Source: Escherichia phage E26. From it: a stretch of 64,000 nt of DNA. The translations under genes and the position numbers were made by a program. Below the pieces are notes generated by a model. That model did no database searches. It was not told the DNA's origin and worked only from the letters and a program-made list of their open reading frames with translations. The stretch lies in the sequence record MN655998.1. One strand, 5' to 3'. Positions 4,061-38,822 of this stretch are shown one piece after another (within the stretch, counting starts at the first letter, position 1; each line of letters starts with the position of its first letter).

Positions 4061-5275
4061 TTAAGCAGGATGCGTTTCACGAATGCATAGAACTCGCTCT
4101 AACGTATCTCGGTCCAGTTTATGTAAATCTTTGGAATGATACATGAAACCATTGCGAGATTCCATGCAAGTGCAATCACTATATTTTTCTTCCGCTGCCG
4201 CGATTGTCTCCAGATCTTTGGCGTACTTGCTGGTAGAATAAACTTCTCGGTCACGCCACTCTAACCCAGCCTCATTGAATTTAACAATCTCGTCAAATAC
4301 CCACCATCCAATGTAGATAAATGAAGTTTTGCGCCACGGGATCGGGTGTACGTAACGAAACATTTTAACAACTTCCATTGAACATTTTCTACTTGTACTT
4401 GTTGCAACTTCTACTGTTTCATTTTCGATCTGTTGATATAGTTTAGCAACACACCAGAATTTGGCTGTGTCATCGTAAGTAGCACTCTCTTTGAACAGAT
4501 GACCGTCTGGAGTGATAGAAAATCCTTCCTGTGCTTCGCCGACCTCATTACCGATCAGAGTCGGTGACAGTTGCCCTTCGCGCTGCAAATACCAGTTATG
4601 TTTGATCGTCAATTCAGGCATACCGCTAGAATCGCCTACAATGTCCTCTGACACAACATAATTAAGTAAGATCTCATTACCTAGTGCCACGGTCTTTGAT
4701 TCCACCACATCCTGTTCTACGTTCATTGTTGCCAGCATGATTTTAGTCGATGCGCTATTGGCTGAATCTTCCGACTCACCCCACACTTTTACAGTATACA
4801 CGCCGTTTTTATCTGCTGTAAATTTTTGGATTGTAATATCCTGTTTTGTGTCTATAACTTCTTCGCCCTTACTCCAACTATAATGTAGTTCATAGTTGTC
4901 TGATGGAGTCTTCCCACCAGAAAAATTTACTGTTGCATGTAATTCTACGTCTGTTTGTGATGATACGTAGAAATGCTGCGGTTCGGTGATATTTACGATT
5001 AATTCCGCTTCTTCCATGAGGAAAACTTCAGATTCTACTGATGTCGTCGTATCGGTATCTTGTACCGTTACTTTATAGCTACCCGCATTTTCACTTGTTG
5101 CGCCTTCTACAGTTAGCGTAGCTGTGTTATTTTCATGCGGTTGGTCGTCTTTTGTCCATGTATATGTCAAATTGCTGGGTAATGGTTCGTCACCCTCTAC
5201 AGTCGCCGTTAAGGTGAAACCATCGCCAGCAAGAAAACATCTTTTGTCAGATTTAATTGATACTGTGAAAGCCAT
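4061..5275 (-). CDS. hoc: highly immunogenic outer capsid protein Hoc
   Basis: 404 aa; Ig-like N-terminal repeats; C-terminal capsid-binding motifs YVHPIPWR, GWWVFDEIV, ESRNGF matching T4 Hoc. Confidence 0.85.
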   Translation of the reverse strand: MAFTVSIKSDKRCFLAGDGFTLTATVEGDEPLPSNLTYTWTKDDQPHENNTATLTVEGATSENAGSYKVTVQDTDTTTSVESEVFLMEEAELIVNITEPQHFYVSSQTDVELHATVNFSGGKTPSDNYELHYSWSKGEEVIDTKQDITIQKFTADKNGVYTVKVWGESEDSANSASTKIMLATMNVEQDVVESKTVALGNEILLNYVVSEDIVGDSSGMPELTIKHNWYLQREGQLSPTLIGNEVGEAQEGFSITPDGHLFKESATYDDTAKFWCVAKLYQQIENETVEVATSTSRKCSMEVVKMFRYVHPIPWRKTSFIYIGWWVFDEIVKFNEAGLEWRDREVYSTSKYAKDLETIAAAEEKYSDCTCMESRNGFMYHSKDLHKLDRDTLERVLCIRETHPA

Positions 5276-5444
5276 ATAAAGCCACTCCCATCGAAAATCC
5301 GAATTTAATTAATTGAAATAGTTGATTGTCATCAACCAGATAACCATTGCGAGATTCCAATACATGAGTATTAGAATAGTGATGCAACGAGGCCGAAATA
5401 GTATCGATCTCGTCTGGGTATTTGTTCTGTTTGATGTAATACAT
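5253..5444 (-). CDS. small ORF carrying a Hoc C-terminal-like motif (ESRNGY)
   Basis: 63 aa; KYPDEID...ESRNGYLV resembles the Hoc C-terminus; overlaps hoc start by 23 nt. Confidence 0.35.
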   Translation of the reverse strand: MYYIKQNKYPDEIDTISASLHHYSNTHVLESRNGYLVDDNQLFQLIKFGFSMGVALYGFHSIN

Positions 5445-5540
5445 TGATTTTGTTAGACATGTAGTATCCTCTTTTTAATTGCATAACGGAACTACAATTA
5501 AAATTATAACAAATATTTCACAACTTTTATCACCCAAAAA

Positions 5541-6266
5541 TTACTTGAGTGTGTGGAATTGGCTATGTTTAGTCTCTCGCACCTTGACAGACCCATCGCG
5601 TTTGATATAATAGATCAGTGACTTGAGGGTGTCGTGTACATACGCGTGCGGGAAACGCTCTGGATACTTCTTCCAATCTGGAGTATTAACGATCCAGTCG
5701 AAAATCCACCACGGGCAGGAGTAGTAACCACGACCGCCACCGATCAAGCAAATGGTCGGACGGAAGCCAGTAAGATCGCAAAATGAATCAGTGTCATGTG
5801 ATGGGGAACGATGTTCTGCTTCGTCAGAGAAAATGTTTGCTACCGGAGATTTCACTTTAACTTCCGGTGCTTCTTCAACATCTGACTTAACTTCTTCGAC
5901 CACTGGTTCAACTGCTGGAGATTCTTCTTTTGTTTCTTCAATGACGATCTCAGTTTCTTTCATTGCTTCAACCAGAGACGGGTCAACTTCGTCGAATACC
6001 ACTTTATCATCTGCGGTGTCTGCTGCCAGAATAAGATCGTTAATACTGGTTCCTTCTGCCGGAGTTTCTTCTTCCATTTCGGAAGCCAGTTTAGTTAATT
6101 CGGTTTCTACGAACTCGATCATGTTCTCTAGTGATAAAGTCTTTTTGACCTTAATATCAAATTGTTTTGCGTAGTCAGCTAATTCTGTTTTAGCTGTTTT
6201 CTGTGCTTCTTTGTCGTCGGACGCCGCAATAGCGCGGAGTTCTTCGAAATATTCTTTATCAAACAT
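5541..6266 (-). CDS. acidic protein with Hoc-like capsid-binding C-terminal motif; possibly Inh-like by position
   Basis: 241 aa; acidic N-terminal half; C-terminal CPWWIFDWIV...YYIK resembles Hoc GWWVFDEIV; located between hoc and uvsW where T4 has inh. Confidence 0.55.
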   Translation of the reverse strand: MFDKEYFEELRAIAASDDKEAQKTAKTELADYAKQFDIKVKKTLSLENMIEFVETELTKLASEMEEETPAEGTSINDLILAADTADDKVVFDEVDPSLVEAMKETEIVIEETKEESPAVEPVVEEVKSDVEEAPEVKVKSPVANIFSDEAEHRSPSHDTDSFCDLTGFRPTICLIGGGRGYYSCPWWIFDWIVNTPDWKKYPERFPHAYVHDTLKSLIYYIKRDGSVKVRETKHSQFHTLK

Positions 6267-6292
6267 GTTATTCTCCTGATTGGGGGTGTTTG

Positions 6293-6300
6293 TATAAATA
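6293..6300 (+). promoter_or_regulatory. T4-type late promoter TATAAATA for uvsW
   Basis: Exact TATAAATA 22 nt upstream of the uvsW ATG. Confidence 0.5.
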
Positions 6301-6321
6301 TTTGTATACTGTATTTATTGA

Positions 6322-7839
6322 GTGAGGCTATTCGCTATGCAAGATATTAAAATTCACTTTCTGAACTACTCCCATGTTCAAATTGAATGTAGCGATTCAA
6401 TTTTATTAGAAATGCGAGATTATTTTAGTTTTGAAGTCGAGGGAGCGCGGTTCCAAAAAAGATTTAAGTATGGTGGATGGGATGGGCGTATTCGTCTTTT
6501 AGATTACAACGGAAAGCTGCCAATCGGCCTAACTAAAACCGTGGGAATCTTCGCTAAAAATATGGGCTATAGCGTATGGGTAGATCCTCGCTTATTCGAA
6601 AAAGAACAAGTTACAGAAGAAGAAATTACAAAATGGTGTAATGACTTAGAATTATATTCCGGTGCTAACAGGATCACCCCGCACTGGTATCAATCAAAGG
6701 CTGTCTTTGAAGGTATTCATCATAAACGCCGTATGTTAGTTTTGCCTACGTCCGCTGGTAAATCTGCGATTGCTTGTATGTTGTCTCGTTGGTACTTAGA
6801 GAACTACGAAGGGAAAGTGCTGATCATCGTTCCTACCACGTCGCTAGTGCTGCAAATGCGTGATGATTTTGTTGATTATCGCCAGTTTCCTTATGAAGCA
6901 ATTCATACTATCATGAGCGGTACTAGTAAACACGTAGGTGATCGCCTGATCGTTGTTAGTACGTGGCAATCAGCATGTAAACAGCCTCGTGAGTGGTTCC
7001 AACAATTCGGGATGGTTATTGTTGACGAATGTCACAAGGCTACTGCTAAAAACCTGCTAAACATCGTTACTGATATGGATCATTGCCAGTTTAAGATCGG
7101 CATGACTGGTTCCCCTCGTGACGGGAAAGCTAACATGATGCAGTATGTCGGGCTTTTCGGTGATATTTCTAAGATCGTGAGTATTGACCGCCTGATGGAA
7201 GAAGGGCAGGTGACAAAACTGAAAATTAACTGTCTTTTCCTTCGTTATACCGATGAGGAATGTAGCGCGGTTAAGGGTAGAGAATATGCGGAAGAGATCA
7301 AGTATATTACGTCTAACCCACGACGAAATAAGTTTGCTTGTAATTTGGCGCTAAAACTCGCTAAGAAGGGCGAAAACGTATTCCTGATGTTCCGCAATAC
7401 TAAGCACGGAAAACTTATGTATGATGCGTTACAGAAGGTACACGACAAGGTTTATTATATTGACGGTGGAGTTAAGACAGAAGAACGTGATGAATTTAAG
7501 AAAATGGCGGAGGGTGACACCGGGATCATTTGTGTTGCGTCTTATGGTGTGTTCTCTACTGGTGTTTCAATTAAGAATTTGCACCATGTTATTTTCGGTC
7601 ATCCAGTGAAGGAATCAACTATCGTTCGTCAGAGTATCGGTCGTGCATTGCGTAAACATGGTTCTAAGGATATTGCAACGGTCTGGGATCTTATCGATCA
7701 TCTGGCGGTGAAGACAAAGAGCAAGAATGCTAAGAAACAGTTTAGTCACCTTAATTATGCTCTTAAACATGCCCTTGAAAGAATAAAAATTTACAACACC
7801 GATCGATTCGAATATGTCACGAAAACCATCGAGATTTAA
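6322..7839 (+). CDS. uvsW: UvsW RNA-DNA and DNA-DNA helicase
   Basis: 505 aa; near-colinear with T4 UvsW (IKIHF, FRYGxWDGRIRLLDYN, PTSAGKS Walker A, DECH, helicase C motifs). Confidence 0.92.
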   Translation: MRLFAMQDIKIHFLNYSHVQIECSDSILLEMRDYFSFEVEGARFQKRFKYGGWDGRIRLLDYNGKLPIGLTKTVGIFAKNMGYSVWVDPRLFEKEQVTEEEITKWCNDLELYSGANRITPHWYQSKAVFEGIHHKRRMLVLPTSAGKSAIACMLSRWYLENYEGKVLIIVPTTSLVLQMRDDFVDYRQFPYEAIHTIMSGTSKHVGDRLIVVSTWQSACKQPREWFQQFGMVIVDECHKATAKNLLNIVTDMDHCQFKIGMTGSPRDGKANMMQYVGLFGDISKIVSIDRLMEEGQVTKLKINCLFLRYTDEECSAVKGREYAEEIKYITSNPRRNKFACNLALKLAKKGENVFLMFRNTKHGKLMYDALQKVHDKVYYIDGGVKTEERDEFKKMAEGDTGIICVASYGVFSTGVSIKNLHHVIFGHPVKESTIVRQSIGRALRKHGSKDIATVWDLIDHLAVKTKSKNAKKQFSHLNYALKHALERIKIYNTDRFEYVTKTIEI

Positions 7840-31902: not shown

Positions 31903-32106
31903 TTAACCGTATACGCGAAAGTATTCTACTGACCCGTCGCTATACTGTTTTACATTGAATGTATTCACACCATGATTATTTCTCATGATGACATATACAC
32001 TACGACGTTCATCGCTAAACGGCATAACTGGTGCGGGTTCAATATCAACATTAAAACCACGTTTAGCAAGTGCTTCGCCCAATTTCTTGATTTTATCGGT
32101 AAACAT
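31903..32106 (-). CDS. small hypothetical protein
   Basis: ORF track 67 aa. Confidence 0.45.
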   Translation of the reverse strand: MFTDKIKKLGEALAKRGFNVDIEPAPVMPFSDERRSVYVIMRNNHGVNTFNVKQYSDGSVEYFRVYG

Positions 32107-33005
32107 TAAAAGTCTCCGTAGTTAACCTGAAAACATTCTACACCAATTGAGCGGTACATGTCAACCACTTGATCACGATCATCTACTGCCAACACAACAT
32201 GATAACGTGGTGCAATTTCAGAGAAGAAAATCTCTTTCTTCACTTCATGATCAGGACGACGATCATTAGTTTCACGTTGAAAGTGATCACTCGGTTCAAT
32301 ACCCTGTTCACGCAACCATTGCAGAGTATCTTCTTCGCAAACATCCTCACGCCCTGAGCATGTAATGATACGATAACCATTATCACGATACAGTTTAAGC
32401 ATTTCGATAACTTGCGGACGCGGTTTATCTTCTTTGACCTTTGTCCAGTCAAACGGATGACGACCGCCCTTATCCGCTAATGTTCCATCAATATCAAAGA
32501 TCACTGCCTTCGGCAGCATGGTATTCGGTTTGTATACTTCTTGACCCATATATTCCTGCATCAGATAAAATTGGTTACGCAAATGAGAAAGTGGAATTGC
32601 TTTCTCGCCTCGATAGAAATTACGTTTCTTTAGTGTCTCAAATGATTCATTGAACACTTGTTCAGTATACACCGCGTTAAATTCTTTTGCAAGTTCTTTG
32701 TAGAATACACGATGTTTTTCTTTCAGGTTGGTATCGGAGATAATGATACTCAATCCGCGTGATAGAGTCTCGCGAGCAATCATTCTCTGAATAGACTCTA
32801 CCAGCTTTTCCTTTTCCTTAGTATATTTGTATTTCAAAGGTGAGTCAACACCAAACAACATAAGACGAAGATCATCACGATTCACATTACGATAATTACT
32901 AAACCGTTTACATGTTTCCATAGCCCATGTAGTTTTACCGGACCCAGAACAACCAACGGTTAAAATCACTTCACATTTCGGCATTATTTCTCCTTCGGTT
33001 TGCAC
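32106..33005 (-). CDS. pseT: polynucleotide 5'-kinase / 3'-phosphatase
   Basis: 299 aa; Walker A GCSGSGKTTWA, HAD motif VIFDIDGTLA, LAVDDRDQVV; colinear with T4 Pnk. Confidence 0.92.
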   Translation of the reverse strand: MQTEGEIMPKCEVILTVGCSGSGKTTWAMETCKRFSNYRNVNRDDLRLMLFGVDSPLKYKYTKEKEKLVESIQRMIARETLSRGLSIIISDTNLKEKHRVFYKELAKEFNAVYTEQVFNESFETLKKRNFYRGEKAIPLSHLRNQFYLMQEYMGQEVYKPNTMLPKAVIFDIDGTLADKGGRHPFDWTKVKEDKPRPQVIEMLKLYRDNGYRIITCSGREDVCEEDTLQWLREQGIEPSDHFQRETNDRRPDHEVKKEIFFSEIAPRYHVVLAVDDRDQVVDMYRSIGVECFQVNYGDF

Positions 33006-33436
33006 CGTTCCTCATTAAGTTCTTTGCGATAATAACACAGGATCAACTTACTTTCAAGTGTATATCTCTTAATATCAGCCAACCAGACTCTAAATTTTTG
33101 GGAGTCCTCCCACGACATAGAAACTCTAGGTTTACCGTCTATTGTATCCACTTTCAGGTCAATGTCAACTTTTTCTATTGGTGCTGGTAGTGGAGGATGT
33201 AATTTCGGTTCCTGTGAATAATGGTCCATTGTACACGAAGAAAGAGCAAATACAATAGGCACAGCGAAGACATGGATTATGGCGGTCTGAAAATTCTTAT
33301 GTGCTTTCTTAAACATCCAGTGTATCACGAAAATTGAAAACACCATCAGGATAATAATGCTTGCACCTATCCACAGATAATCAACCAGATTAAAATTGCT
33401 TATCTGCTCTTGTGTAGGCAATATTTCTATGCTCAT
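32984..33436 (-). CDS. membrane protein
   Basis: 150 aa; N-terminal transmembrane helices. Confidence 0.5.
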   Translation of the reverse strand: MSIEILPTQEQISNFNLVDYLWIGASIIILMVFSIFVIHWMFKKAHKNFQTAIIHVFAVPIVFALSSCTMDHYSQEPKLHPPLPAPIEKVDIDLKVDTIDGKPRVSMSWEDSQKFRVWLADIKRYTLESKLILCYYRKELNEERCKPKEK

Positions 33437-33756
33437 TTAGTAGCCTCCTTTAATTCTTCGGTAAACTCCTTAAATGAGTCATTAAGCTGTTTCTCTACCA
33501 ACCTGGGTTTTTGTGCTACTACATAGCCTCGTGTAGCGTCTTTCATTGCTTTGTTTTGTTCTTCTGCAAACTTAGTTCTTATTCCGTACATCTCTTTTTG
33601 CAGCGAGTCTACGACCTTCATCTTTTCATCTGTCTTTTTCTTATACTCTGTAAATTCCTGATTCAGTCGATCTACCTCCTTTTTATTTTCCCACCACATA
33701 TTGCCACCGACCCCCAGCAATACAGAGATGATAACAATGTATATCAGCTTTGACAT
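33433..33756 (-). CDS. membrane-anchored coiled-coil protein (start at internal Met MSKLIYIV)
   Basis: Track ORF start 33807 lies upstream of the terminator hairpin; internal start is after the terminator. Confidence 0.45.
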   Translation of the reverse strand: MSKLIYIVIISVLLGVGGNMWWENKKEVDRLNQEFTEYKKKTDEKMKVVDSLQKEMYGIRTKFAEEQNKAMKDATRGYVVAQKPRLVEKQLNDSFKEFTEELKEATK

Positions 33757-33769
33757 ATTACCCCCAACG

Positions 33770-33794
33770 ACAAAAGGCGGGGAACTAGCCCCGC
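33770..33794 (-). terminator. Rho-independent terminator (minus strand) after rnlA
   Basis: GCGGGG-AACTA-GCCCCGC hairpin; U-run on minus strand. Confidence 0.55.
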
Positions 33795-33800
33795 TTATTA

Positions 33801-34970
33801 TTACCAATCAATCTTATCAGCCGGAATCAGTTTCTTATAATTCCGTAGATAGTAAGTTTTCATTGAATCCAGAATACGGTCATAATCAAGACCATCAAAT
33901 GCAATCATCAGACACATGAAAATATATGCTTGTGCATCACCATGTTTACGCGATTCGATAGTCGCATTGGATGCATATGTCTTTCTATCTTCTCCCGCGT
34001 GTGCGTTATAAAACTCTGTTGCTGTCGTAAAGGCATTGCGAAGAATAGACCTGAATGCTTCCTCGAATAGCTCGATTCGTTCCAGTGCTTCCGGTTCGCC
34101 TTCATATGCAGCACGCAAATCATCGGTTTCGCTTTCTACGACATAGTAGATCAGGTTATTAGGAAACATCGATGTGTTTTTAATGTTATGCACACCAATA
34201 TACCATTCACTCTTCACTTTGAACATTTGACCGTCTTTAGTGCGTGCAACAATTCCTTCGATGCCTTCTGCGATCCGAACTTCATCAAGAATATTGCTAA
34301 AACGCGCTGAATCAACCTGTAACGCATTTACCAGATGAGGACGTAGGATTGCGTCCGCAAATAGCATTTGATGCGGTACGTACTCTCCTGTGACGTTATG
34401 GCGTACATTCAGAAGTGTTAGCGACGGTTCAGAATATTCTACAACAATTCGGTTGCTGGGCGCTGTATATTCAAAGTTGAAAGTATAATCAGACCCAATA
34501 TCAGCAATCTTAGCGCGTAGATCCGCATACTTCTCTGAATACAGAAGACCGTTTGCTCTCTCTGCCTGGCTTGAGTACAAGGCCGCTTTAGACTTCAACT
34601 GAACATAGCCGTTATCAATGTATGTGCTTACTAGACTACCGTCCATTTTGTCCATGACCATTTCCACATCTTCCGGCTTAAAGCGAGCGCGATCATTCTC
34701 ACCCAAATTAAAAAACTTCTCCATAGGACGAGATGCGATGCGGACCGGACGACCTTTATCGTCAATTTCAAACATGATCCCGCGACACTCTAACGCATCT
34801 GGTTTATTCCACATTTCAGGTTTGCTCAAGTACATATAGCTAAAAATGCGCATACGGGTTTGCATCGCCGTAATTTCATCTTTGTAATAGAACGTATCAG
34901 ATCCGTCACACAGTGCCATAAGATTTTTGAACAATGCTAAAACTTTTTTGTTGTTTTCTTTTGTTGACAT
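33801..34970 (-). CDS. rnlA: RNA ligase 1
   Basis: 389 aa; ALECRGIMFE, RIASRPMEKFFNL, KMDGSLVS (lysine-adenylate motif), KDGQMFKVKSEWY; colinear with T4 RnlA. Confidence 0.92.
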   Translation of the reverse strand: MSTKENNKKVLALFKNLMALCDGSDTFYYKDEITAMQTRMRIFSYMYLSKPEMWNKPDALECRGIMFEIDDKGRPVRIASRPMEKFFNLGENDRARFKPEDVEMVMDKMDGSLVSTYIDNGYVQLKSKAALYSSQAERANGLLYSEKYADLRAKIADIGSDYTFNFEYTAPSNRIVVEYSEPSLTLLNVRHNVTGEYVPHQMLFADAILRPHLVNALQVDSARFSNILDEVRIAEGIEGIVARTKDGQMFKVKSEWYIGVHNIKNTSMFPNNLIYYVVESETDDLRAAYEGEPEALERIELFEEAFRSILRNAFTTATEFYNAHAGEDRKTYASNATIESRKHGDAQAYIFMCLMIAFDGLDYDRILDSMKTYYLRNYKKLIPADKIDW

Positions 34971-35367
34971 AATTTGTGTTCCATTCTGGTTTAAATTTGG
35001 TGATCAAAACAGGTTCTTCGATATCGGCAGTGCTTATAATATCCTTACCCGTTGGATTCTCGATGTACAACTCAAAGCACTGGCGGTAATAGAATGTTAC
35101 TGTCTTACCTTCCTCTAGCGCCTTATGAATATTCTTACTCTTGCGAGTATCCGCTGTTGGTGTTTGTCTGTTAATGCTAGTCCGGTAATAATTGATCCGC
35201 TTTCTGAGATTGACAGTCTGACCAATATATACCAGTTCATCATCAACCGCAATAGCGTAAAGAACATTTAAACGGTTCTTCTGAGGCGGCAGAATCACAT
35301 CACCATCTTTACACTCTAAACATGAATATTTAACGAATCCATAGTTTTCTATTAGCTCATTAATCAT
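34906..35367 (-). CDS. denA: endonuclease II (GIY-YIG family)
   Basis: 153 aa; VLYAIAVDDELVYIGQTVNLRKRINYYRT closely matches T4 DenA. Confidence 0.88.
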   Translation of the reverse strand: MINELIENYGFVKYSCLECKDGDVILPPQKNRLNVLYAIAVDDELVYIGQTVNLRKRINYYRTSINRQTPTADTRKSKNIHKALEEGKTVTFYYRQCFELYIENPTGKDIISTADIEEPVLITKFKPEWNTNYVNKRKQQKSFSIVQKSYGTV

Positions 35368-36785: not shown

Positions 36786-36832
36786 CACCCAATAACAAAA
36801 AAGTCGCCACTATGGGCGACTTTGAACAAACA

Positions 36833-37309
36833 TTAATCATGACCGTGATTTGCAATATCCGCGCGTGTCTTATCTTTGTGGTTCCCTACATCAAAGACAC
36901 GATAGCCGTTTTCTCTGAGAACTTTAATCACTTCTGGGTTATCCTCAAAGACTCCCACTACTTCATCTTTATCAAAGGATTTAATTACCTCTAATTTGAT
37001 GTGATAGTCTTTACGGGAATCGGTACGGCCTCTCATAAAGATTTTATCAAAACACACCCCGTTAGAAATTAACCAATCAATTGTTTCCATGTAAGCATGT
37101 GAACTTCGTCCGGTGAGGATGTAAATCAAATGCCCGTTGTCGGAAAGAGCATTAATAACACGAATTACATCGTAAATGGGGGAATCTCCCCCACATGCCT
37201 TGTTATATTCGATCCATGACTCTACTTTATCAAGATTTTCGGTTGGCATCTTTGCTAGTCGATGTGTTGGATCTGTGATCGTAAAATCTAAATCAACAAA
37301 ATATATCAT
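36833..37309 (-). CDS. HAD-superfamily phosphatase-like protein
   Basis: 158 aa; N-terminal DLDFTITD (DxD motif I), later ILTGRS and FEDNPE motifs. Confidence 0.55.
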   Translation of the reverse strand: MIYFVDLDFTITDPTHRLAKMPTENLDKVESWIEYNKACGGDSPIYDVIRVINALSDNGHLIYILTGRSSHAYMETIDWLISNGVCFDKIFMRGRTDSRKDYHIKLEVIKSFDKDEVVGVFEDNPEVIKVLRENGYRVFDVGNHKDKTRADIANHGHD

Positions 37310-38466
37310 AGATATTTCCCGAATCGGTTGTAGTCATCGTCTGTTAAATCGGTATTAACCTGAGATACCAGATACATGATCTCTACTTCTTGCGCCGCGT
37401 TTTGAACTTCGTCAGAGTTCAACCATTTACGCATCCACGGTAAAGGATGACGACGAACACTAAACGGGCTTTTCAGTCCGGCAGCACGCATACGGGAATC
37501 TGCCAGGTATTCTACATAGGTTTTCAGAATTTCCGGTGACAGGTTAGGAATTGCCCCCATTGCGAATAGGTGGTCTACCCATTCTTTTTCTTGCTCGACA
37601 ACATCCAGAAAGATTTTCGTTGCTTCGCCTTCAAGTTCTTCCGCAATCTGTTTCCACTCATCACCATCAACCCCCGTTTGCCATTGACGAATAATGTATT
37701 GTGTGCCTTTTAAGTGAAGTTGTTCATCACGCGCAATAAATTTCATGATCTTCGCGTTACCTTCCAGTAAACCACGTTCGGCAAAGCTGAAAGTACATGC
37801 AAAGGACACATAAAAACGAATTGCTTCCAAAGCATTAACGCAGTGTGCACACAGATAAATCGAAGCCATCAGATCTCGTTTTGTATCTTCAAAAAATCTT
37901 CTTGCATCATCTAATGCTGCCTGGTCGTCTCGTTCTTCCCAATAGCGGAGATCTTCTTTTGCATTCTCATACTTACGAATCCAATAAAGAACATCATCAT
38001 AATATTTCCCGATAGATTCCGCTCGCTTCATGATAGCAGGGTTATCGATGATCTGGTCGAACTCACTAGCCGGATCAATAAAACAGTTACGCATAATGTG
38101 AGTATAACTGCGGCTATGAATCGTTTCGCTGAATGTCCATGTTTGTAACCATGTATCGAGAGTTGGATCAGATACAATTGGACCAAATGCTGCGGACGGT
38201 GCGCGACCTTGAATAGAATCAAGTAATGTCTGATACTTCAAGTTTTCGGTAAAGAAACGCTTTTCAACGTCACCCATATTAAGATATTGAATGCGGTCGG
38301 TTGCAAGTGAAATCTCTTCTGGACGCCAGAAAAATGACAATTGCTTTTCGATTAGTTCTTCAAATACTTGATGACGCTGAATATCATAGCGAGCGATACC
38401 CAACCCACTACCCAGAAACATCGGTTCGTTCATAATATCAACATGTTCGCGGTTAAATACGCTCAT
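37306..38466 (-). CDS. nrdB: ribonucleotide reductase small subunit
   Basis: 386 aa; di-iron R2 motifs (EAIRFYVSFA, ERGLLEGN); no intron interruption. Confidence 0.9.
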   Translation of the reverse strand: MSVFNREHVDIMNEPMFLGSGLGIARYDIQRHQVFEELIEKQLSFFWRPEEISLATDRIQYLNMGDVEKRFFTENLKYQTLLDSIQGRAPSAAFGPIVSDPTLDTWLQTWTFSETIHSRSYTHIMRNCFIDPASEFDQIIDNPAIMKRAESIGKYYDDVLYWIRKYENAKEDLRYWEERDDQAALDDARRFFEDTKRDLMASIYLCAHCVNALEAIRFYVSFACTFSFAERGLLEGNAKIMKFIARDEQLHLKGTQYIIRQWQTGVDGDEWKQIAEELEGEATKIFLDVVEQEKEWVDHLFAMGAIPNLSPEILKTYVEYLADSRMRAAGLKSPFSVRRHPLPWMRKWLNSDEVQNAAQEVEIMYLVSQVNTDLTDDDYNRFGKYL

Positions 38467-38481
38467 TAATTCACCTCACTA

Positions 38482-38649
38482 TCACTTTTTAACACAAAAG
38501 AACTTAGTATTTCTGTTTATTTCGCTATCCTGTTGTAGTTCCCGCAAAGCCTCAAAACAACTTTGATGAGATGTAAACTCTACACCAGTGACCGTGCCTT
38601 TATTATACACACCAACACTAACGGAAAGCAATAACCATATTGTAGCCAT
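38482..38649 (-). CDS. small signal-peptide/membrane protein (55 aa), tandem paralog
   Basis: Manual translation MATIWLLLSVSVGVYNKGT...; TAATG stop-start overlap. Confidence 0.4.
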   Translation of the reverse strand: MATIWLLLSVSVGVYNKGTVTGVEFTSHQSCFEALRELQQDSEINRNTKFFCVKK

Positions 38650-38822
38650 TAGTTCACCTTCTGCTTTTCAACACAGTACAGATTCATAAAGCGTTTATTG
38701 TCTTCGCGGATAATCTCGCGAGCTTTAACGCAATCCTGCTTTGTGGAAAATTCAATGCTTGACATATTTCCGTAATTATACATTGAATTGCTTATTGCAA
38801 TCAATAACCATACAGTAGCCAT
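38649..38822 (-). CDS. small signal-peptide/membrane protein (57 aa), tandem paralog
   Basis: Manual translation MATVWLLIAISNSMYNYGN...; TAATG overlap with upstream ORF. Confidence 0.4.
   Translation of the reverse strand: MATVWLLIAISNSMYNYGNMSSIEFSTKQDCVKAREIIREDNKRFMNLYCVEKQKVN

Follow-up and report, generated by a model that had tools for sequence, protein, structure and literature searches.

The stretch of DNA analysed here, referred to as the window, comprises 64,000 nucleotides of Escherichia phage E26 (sequence record MN655998.1), a Krischvirus, i.e., an RB49/Phi1-like, T4-related coliphage. At issue is a gene on its minus strand that overlaps the stop codon of nrdB, the gene for the small subunit of the class Ia ribonucleotide reductase (RNR), and that encodes a stand-alone phosphatase of the HAD superfamily with a length of 158 amino acids (aa).

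The HAD gene and its transcription unit

The features of the locus, in coordinates of the window, are as follows.

36833..37309, minus strand: stand-alone HAD (DxDxT) phosphatase gene, 158 aa, ATG start, from the open reading frame (ORF) listing and direct translation
37280..37294, minus strand: HAD motif I, D6-L-D8-F-T10, with the nucleophile Asp and the general acid/base Asp, from the translation
37103..37120, minus strand: HAD motif II region, ILTGRS, with T66 (S211 of T4) and R68 (R213 of T4), from the translation
36995..36997, minus strand: HAD motif III, K105 (K258 of T4), invariant, within DYHIKLE at 36989-37009
36941..36946, minus strand: HAD motif IV, E122-D123 (D277-D278 of T4), D123 invariant, within FEDNP at 36935-36949
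37306..38466, minus strand: nrdB, class Ia RNR small subunit, the upstream partner (PF00268, E 1.3e-43)
37306..37309, minus strand: ATGA, the 4-nt overlap of nrdB stop and HAD start, with translational coupling
36790..36823, minus strand: intrinsic-terminator-like hairpin (9-bp stem, 5 GC pairs) followed by a T-run

Read from the sequence, the TGA of nrdB occupies positions 37306-37308 and the ATG of the HAD ORF positions 37307-37309, in agreement with the overlap that a first-pass annotation of the window had noted. That annotation also placed the gene directly upstream of nrdB, which is so in window coordinates only; since both genes lie on the minus strand, the HAD gene is transcriptionally downstream. 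The terminator-like hairpin begins 10 nt past the HAD stop codon, and a strong sigma-70-like promoter match is found beyond it, at 36785-36757. The nrdB-HAD transcription unit is thus predicted to end at the hairpin, and the HAD gene to be the final cistron of a unit that runs from three small ORFs after nrdA, through nrdB, to HAD, because of the ATGA overlap, the hairpin and T-run after the stop codon (36823-36800), and the location of the next promoter-like site beyond them. The same features lend support to the co-transcription with nrdB that had been proposed earlier. The nrdB/HAD overlap is likewise annotated in Phi1, PTE-Eco09, and Makalu_003, and a terminator is annotated at the matching place in Ec_Makalu_003.

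On a larger scale, the HAD gene sits inside the window's frd-td-nrdA-nrdB...denA...cd nucleotide-metabolism block, with rnlA and pseT located 2-4 kb downstream. Since T4 carries nrdB and denA without any intervening gene, the HAD gene can be regarded as a lineage-specific insertion. The 3.1-kb region around it is 96.5% identical to vB_EcoM_011D4, and 95.7% identical to Phi1 across the 88% that aligns.

Several features of the surrounding genes were also recorded. Between nrdA and nrdB lie two paralogous small ORFs in tandem, of 55 and 57 aa (38482-38649 and 38649-38822, minus strand), both of which start with MAT[IV]WLL, have a hydrophobic N-terminus and a Cys close to the C-terminus, and are the counterparts of Phi1 ORF231 and ORF232. 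At 32106-35367, also on the minus strand, the order is pseT, pseT.2/pseT.3 (spanins), rnlA, and denA; unlike in T4, the alc gene is absent between pseT.3 and rnlA. The rnlA ORF (33801-34970) overlaps the longest denA ORF (34906-35367) by 65 nt, as it does in the annotation of Phi1.

Motifs, fold, and names of the 158-aa protein

When aligned with T4 PseT, residues D6, D8, T10, and R17 of the query correspond to D165, D167, T169, and R176 of the T4 enzyme, D42, T66, R68, and D101 to D187, S211, R213, and D254, and K105, E122, and D123 to K258, D277, and D278. Catalytic roles have been described for D165, D167, S211, K258, and D278 of T4 Pnkp (PMC3592404). The HAD motifs picked out in the first-pass annotation hold up in this comparison: the DxD of DLDFT falls on the catalytic Asp165/Asp167 of T4 Pnkp, with D6 also aligned to D22 of T5 Dmp; ILTGRS is motif II, with its T66 on S211; and the C-terminal acidic motif is E122-D123 of FEDNP. 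Across 71 stand-alone homologues, D6, D42, R93, K105, and D123 are invariant, and at least 90% conservation is seen at D8, T10, R17, W32, R68, and W79. The four residues R17, D42, R68, and D101 are invariant in the T4 PseT family alignment. At motif IV, many members of the family have Glu in place of the first Asp, and the consensus of the query/T4 PseT family alignment reads FEDR.

The AlphaFold2 (AF2) model of the protein has a pLDDT of 93.5 and a pTM of 0.89, with a strand at residues 2-6 leading into motif I. A Foldseek search of the PDB returned 59 matches at E<=0.001, and the best 50 of the 59 are all HAD-superfamily domains. At the top is the phosphatase of Pnkp1 (4xrp; E 6.6e-8, TM 0.73), followed by that of T4 Pnkp (5uj0, E 3.5e-7; 1ltq); class B/C acid phosphatases come after the Pnkp folds, at E 1e-5 to 1e-4. 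By sequence, a PDB search gave a marginal Pnkp1 match only (E 0.011). PF25109 (HAD_PNKP) is the sole Pfam family above threshold (50.6 bits against a cut-off of 27.6, E 2.9e-13), and its match spans residues 37-142 only, motif I being left outside because of an insertion that follows it. PF03767 scores 26.4 bits, under its cut-off of 27, PF06941 (NT5C) gave no match to the protein at E<=0.1, and no NCBIfam model came near its cut-off. In PHROGs, the protein matches phrog_415 over residues 1-157 (E 2.9e-51). The ORF proposed at 36833-37309 is accordingly real, being listed as an ORF, matched by both profiles and by 4539 related clusters, and modelled with confidence, and the proposed assignment to the HAD superfamily is borne out by profile search, with PF25109 above its cut-off and phrog_415 matched in full length. 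The protein is a bona fide member of both the superfamily and the Pnkp-type phosphatase family.

The C-terminal tail (residues 143-158; 36833-36880) is modelled with a pLDDT of ~67 and ends in ...ANHGHD. T1-like relatives end in ...SHGE or ...SHGVE, i.e., the "HG" tail is conserved among them, and it is absent from T4-type PseT.

An identical sequence is already present in GenBank, from RB49 (AAQ15454.1) and Phi1 (ABR24739.1, ORF229). In fact, the HAD gene is an ordinary accessory gene, catalogued in dozens of genomes: tblastn matched ~1,200 phage records overall, with at least 95% identity in 58 of them, those inspected being Krischvirus or RB49-like, and with <60% identity in every other. 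Records of the identical or near-identical protein name it variously "hypothetical protein", "3'-phosphatase", "polynucleotide kinase", or "5'-kinase and 3'-phosphatase". These names are all that speaks for a bifunctional polynucleotide 5'-kinase/3'-phosphatase, as found in UniRef and GenBank, a reading that we rejected and hold to be next to impossible: all 158 residues are taken up by the phosphatase fold of the AF2 model, and the protein has neither a Walker A motif nor a Pfam match to a P-loop kinase, whereas the window's PseT matches AAA_33 at 1.7e-18. In the absence of a kinase domain, the protein does not fall into the bifunctional Pnkp class. The "polynucleotide kinase" names are thus transitive annotation errors that are wrong about the kinase, and they are probably misleading about the pathway as well; this holds for the public names of the protein and of its T1-like relatives alike. 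The label of phrog_415 is also "polynucleotide kinase", and this family contains T5 Dmp; the label looks misleading, as do the GenBank names. A separate oddity is that 72-aa proteins, e.g., AAQ15453.1 (the neighbouring RB49 accession), are grouped with the 158-aa protein at 90% identity, which looks like a clustering artefact of the protein collection.

Relatives and their gene neighbourhoods

An exhaustive search of 1.84 billion protein representatives yielded 4539 related representative clusters at E<1e-3; a word-indexed protein search gave only three near-identical matches. The best 150 of the 4539 are mostly stand-alone proteins of 140-170 aa, and 13 of these 150 are kinase-phosphatase fusions of ~300 aa, with phosphatase domains that are 31-41% identical to the query. 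One protein, P0021, has the HAD domain fused to a MazZ-like dATP/dGTP diphosphohydrolase domain (PF18909, 2.9e-29), an arrangement that suggests consecutive steps from deoxynucleoside triphosphate (dNTP) to deoxynucleoside monophosphate (dNMP) to deoxynucleoside. Other fusions join the HAD domain to PrimPol (P0144) or to a second HAD domain in tandem (P0046).

Gene context was surveyed in 79 related IMG/VR loci, which fall into 33 clusters at 60% identity and all carry a stand-alone HAD gene. The nearest 28 of the 79, whose HAD proteins are most similar to the query (35-43% identity), belong to T1-like siphophages. In these 28, the gene just downstream of HAD is either a phrog_139 dNMP kinase (20 loci) or a MazZ-like dATP/dGTP pyrophosphohydrolase (8 loci). 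The dNMP kinase lies within 1.6 kb in all 20 and abuts or overlaps HAD in 15, while the MazZ-like gene abuts HAD in 8 of 8, so that direct abutment is seen in 23 of the 28 overall. For example, in the locus L015 the HAD gene lies at 5989-6477 and the kinase gene at 6474-7055. A phrog_704 exonuclease gene is found directly upstream of HAD in 18 of the 28. Taken across phages, this HAD subclade directly abuts three deoxynucleotide enzymes, namely dNMP kinase, MazZ-like pyrophosphatase, and NrdB.

The T1-like arrangement is a conserved three-gene block of phrog_704 "DNA repair exonuclease", HAD, and dNMP kinase (L015:4821-7055), with L016-L022, L025-L030, L038, and L050 as related loci. In this block, the HAD stop codon overlaps the kinase start, and a sister group has the MazZ-like pyrophosphohydrolase in the kinase slot. 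The pairing of exonuclease and HAD genes is reminiscent of that of the A1 nuclease and Dmp in the pre-early region of T5.

Neither nrdA nor nrdB was found within 6 kb of HAD in any of the 79 loci. A conserved nrd linkage of the HAD family was rejected on this ground, and for the same reason the coupling to nrdB is specific to Krischvirus. The HAD gene looks horizontally acquired, with its nearest relatives in T1-like siphophages. The closest relative outside Krischvirus is that of Kalemo (47.7% identity), a phage whose entire genome is devoid of RNA ligases and Pnk kinases.

Genes of RNA repair occur around more distant members of the family. While no Rnl1 homologue, ligase, or Pnk kinase lies within 6 kb in any of the 28 nearest loci, an Rnl1-type ligase is found within ~2 kb of HAD in three of the 33 clusters (13 loci), where the HAD proteins are 28-35% identical to the query, and two clusters have DNA ligase neighbours. 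One such case is L051 (IMG/VR UViG_3300034021_000712, 4345-7748), in which rnl1 is followed by a kinase-only gene, a HAD-only gene, and a second RNA ligase gene. The kinase-only gene (5499-6011; AAA_33, 1.1e-17) overlaps the HAD-only gene (5965-6435), and the flanking ligases are of the Rnl1 type (4345-5532) and of a type with PF09414 and a PHA02142 OB domain (6705-7748). This cassette thus contains a Pnkp split into two genes.

The query scores 161 bits against a hidden Markov model (HMM) of the nucleotide-context group versus 92 bits for that of the RNA-ligase-context group. At motif II, the query and T5 Dmp both have Thr, as do 97% of the nucleotide-context group; 89% of the kinase-fused or ligase-context members have Ser there. 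Net charge and isoelectric point of the domain did not separate the nucleotide-context from the RNA-repair-context groups.

Candidate functions and known counterparts

From such comparisons we infer which substrate the protein acts on, at which position (5' or 3') it removes the phosphate, and what it does for the phage. The reading that we favour, over that of a polynucleotide 3'-phosphatase, is that the 158-aa protein is a dNMP phosphatase related to T5 Dmp, to which we assign a probability of roughly 0.45. The protein would be a small, Mg2+-dependent DxDxT phosphomonoesterase that forms an aspartyl-phosphate intermediate on D6, with D8 serving as general acid/base, T66 and K105 gripping the phosphate, and D123, together with E122, gripping the metal. 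It would be produced early from the NrdB mRNA via translational coupling to nrdB and would convert dNMP to deoxynucleoside and inorganic phosphate, as T5 Dmp does. The dNMP/dNTP pool would thereby be trimmed or rebalanced at the same time as it is replenished by the phage's RNR, thymidylate synthase, dCMP deaminase, and dNMP kinase. The gene itself looks like a horizontal acquisition that entered the Krischvirus lineage at a site between nrdB and denA. This reading is supported by the dNMP-kinase or MazZ-like neighbours of all 28 nearest loci, the HAD-MazZ fusion of P0021, the higher score of the query with the nucleotide-context HMM, Thr at motif II, the redundancy with PseT that an end-healing role would entail, the lack of RNA ligase and Pnk kinase in Kalemo, the position within the nucleotide-metabolism block, and the gp1 dNMP kinase encoded by Krischvirus.

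The link to Dmp rests on profile comparisons. T5 Dmp (T5.001; 244 aa), the classical deoxynucleoside-5'-monophosphatase, matches phrog_415 in full length (E 3.6e-57) and is the only biochemically characterised member of that family found; it has no Pfam-A match (L095:124-858) at E<=0.001. Pairwise BLASTP of the query with Dmp gives 27% identity over 131 aa with a weak E of 0.002, placing D6 opposite D22 of Dmp, and hhalign of the 71-sequence family profile with Dmp gives a probability of 81% (E 1.2e-5, 138 columns). The D22A mutant of Dmp loses both dAMP phosphatase activity and anti-Kongming function, and homologues of Dmp have been reported to co-occur with phage dNMP kinase (bioRxiv 10.1101/2024.12.20.629578). 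Kongming is a defence that responds to the products of this kinase and that Dmp blocks. A further lead, the dTMP phosphohydrolase of PBS2/PBS1, was dropped, as the literature consulted does not name the gene and the first 50 kb of PBS1 hold no annotated candidate.

Several points weigh against this reading. The query is closer to genuine Pnkp phosphatase domains (38-41% identity, in kinase-fused proteins) than to Dmp, with which it shares only ~25-29% identity and weak pairwise statistics, and it matches the window's own PseT by BLASTP at E 7e-11. Dmp scores near-equally, at 10-14 bits, against every subgroup HMM and so is not placed beside the query, nor was it among the top 50 matches when the query fold was searched against BFVD. 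R17, D42, R68, and D101 are present in T5 Dmp as well as in the Pnkp family and, being conserved in both, do not discriminate between the two readings. The 28 nearest loci come from related phages and are largely one conserved synteny block, i.e., they are not independent. A broad 5'-dNMPase encoded beside a dNMP kinase looks futile, and T1-like phages that have HAD together with a Kongming-triggering dNMP kinase apparently do not escape this system, which argues against a strong general dAMPase in the T1-like clade. The T4 Pnkp phosphatase hydrolyses 3'-dTMP at 24 s-1 (PMC3592404), and by analogy a "nucleotidase" here could be 3'-specific; with the T4 domain being a good 3'-deoxynucleotidase in vitro, even a mononucleotide substrate could carry the phosphate at either 5' or 3'. 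Finally, no paper was found in the literature that characterises the 158-aa protein or its T1-like relatives.

The most serious competitor, which we consider rather unlikely, is a stand-alone polynucleotide 3'-phosphatase that heals ends in the manner of the C-terminal domain of T4 Pnkp. Such an enzyme would strip broken RNA or DNA ends of a 3'-phosphate, 2'-phosphate, or 2',3'-cyclic phosphate. It would either supplement PseT and RnlA with a second or more specialised means of healing or clean up DNA ends. The sole Pfam family above threshold (PF25109) and the best solved structures (Pnkp1 4xrp and T4 Pnkp 5uj0) all point this way, as does the retention of all T4 residues tested in the alignment, including R176, D187, R213, and D254. 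So do the 13 kinase-phosphatase fusions among the best 150 representatives, with their 31-41% identity in the phosphatase domain, the presence of remoter stand-alone members in RNA-repair cassettes such as L051, the Rnl1 and DNA ligases near HAD in three and two clusters, respectively, and the position of rnlA and pseT in the window. Set against this, the phage already encodes a complete, bifunctional PseT (32106-33005) with both domains intact, which would make a second 3' end-healing phosphatase redundant. Moreover, the gene is coupled to nrdB, with a terminator-like hairpin separating it from denA, rnlA, and pseT; the 28 closest loci, none of which contains a ligase or Pnk kinase in the 6 kb around HAD, instead have dNMP kinase or MazZ-like genes abutting it; and Kalemo lacks both genome-wide. 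The occurrence of T5 Dmp in the same PHROG, together with the dNMP-kinase and MazZ-like neighbours of the nearest relatives, is the reason why a pure second-Pnkp-phosphatase reading was downgraded. The earlier suggestion of a nucleotidase that shapes dNMP or dNTP pools therefore fares unevenly: it is favoured on comparative context and distant homology to Dmp, while the domains nearest to it in sequence and structure are those of polynucleotide 3'-phosphatases.

There is also an outside chance that the enzyme acts on some other small molecule and serves host takeover or counter-defence instead of bulk dNTP supply. The substrate might be a cofactor phosphorylated at 2' or 3' (such as NADP or pAp), a sugar phosphate, or a nucleotide-derived immune signal or its precursor. 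HAD phosphatases switch substrate easily, and the structural neighbours after Pnkp are acid phosphatases of broad specificity, AphA and e(P4) with NMN, 5'-AMP, or 2'-AMP bound; PF03767 falls just below its cut-off (26.4 bits against 27), T4 Pnkp has 2'-phosphatase activity (PMC3592404), T4 lacks the gene, an accessory insertion particular to its lineage, and T5 Dmp provides a family precedent for counter-defence. Nothing specific in context or sequence points to such a substrate, however, the informative neighbours and fusions all being deoxynucleotide or nucleic-acid enzymes.

An extension of the favoured dNMP phosphatase reading, in which the gene came from T1-like phages and was tied to the expression of RNR as a counter-defence against nucleotide-sensing systems, is distinctly improbable as it stands. 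In this version, dAMP could, for example, be drained so that the gp1 dNMP kinase does not feed the synthesis of dITP by Kongming; alternatively, the dTTP/dGTP signals read by Clover-type dNTPases would be reshaped. Phi1, itself a Krischvirus, encodes the gp1 dNMP kinase. A T1-like phage kinase of the kind found beside HAD works as a dNMP kinase and sets off Kongming. In T5-like phages, mutations that allow escape from Clover lie in dmp and nrdA/nrdB (PMC12265719). Bacterial immune systems such as Kongming and Clover are now known to read dNMP/dNTP levels, which makes a Dmp-like enzyme coupled to nrdB a candidate for pool tuning or immune evasion. By itself the HAD gene is a routine accessory gene of modest value. 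A counter-defence or immune-evasion role, if true, would be without precedent in T4-like phages.

Among known systems, the top structural match is with the phosphatase domains of T4 Pnkp/PseT (1LTQ, 2IA5, 5UJ0) and Capnocytophaga Pnkp1 (4XRP), which have the same DxDxT fold. All catalytic residues of T4 Pnkp are matched in the query, as are R176, D187, R213, R246, D250, R252, and D254. However, identity to T4-type PseT is only 22-27%, and the query differs in having no fused kinase, in ~13 extra residues after motif I (R17...W32), in E-D instead of D-D at motif IV and Thr instead of Ser at motif II, in R137 at the position of T4 E292, and in being coupled to nrdB and not, as with Pnkp, to RNA ligase. 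The class B/C acid phosphatases (AphA, e(P4); HAD-IIIB, PF03767) and NT5C (PF06941) are likewise HAD nucleotidases that act on nucleoside monophosphates, but they are larger than the query, possess other caps and aromatic clamps, and are only 13-17% identical to it.

The closest homologues are encoded by T1-like phages (Drexlerviridae), among them JK_61 of JK06, gp09 of TLS, and CDS0010 of Kalemo, at 37-48% identity. These proteins share with the query its length class, the C-terminal ...HG tail, and the PHROG (1.3e-66 to phrog_415); the gene differs in that it follows an exonuclease gene and abuts a dNMP kinase or MazZ-like gene, whereas the query abuts nrdB. TLS gp09 has been described as a kinase (PMC11447400), a name that would be unsupported if gp09 is this HAD gene. 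Pap of P1 is somewhat more distant (~32% identity) and matches phrog_415 at 3.1e-56.

T5 Dmp differs from the query in its length of 244 aa, with internal insertions and a ~65-aa C-terminal extension that the query lacks, and in its location as a pre-early gene beside the A1 nuclease, as opposed to the coupling with nrdB; its activity has been demonstrated, whereas that of the query is predicted. In common with the query, Dmp is a stand-alone HAD protein with the signature D-L-D-x-T-I...H-R...N-L-D...A-C-x-x-D...T-x-R, and it, too, comes from a phage equipped with an RNR and a dNMP kinase of its own.

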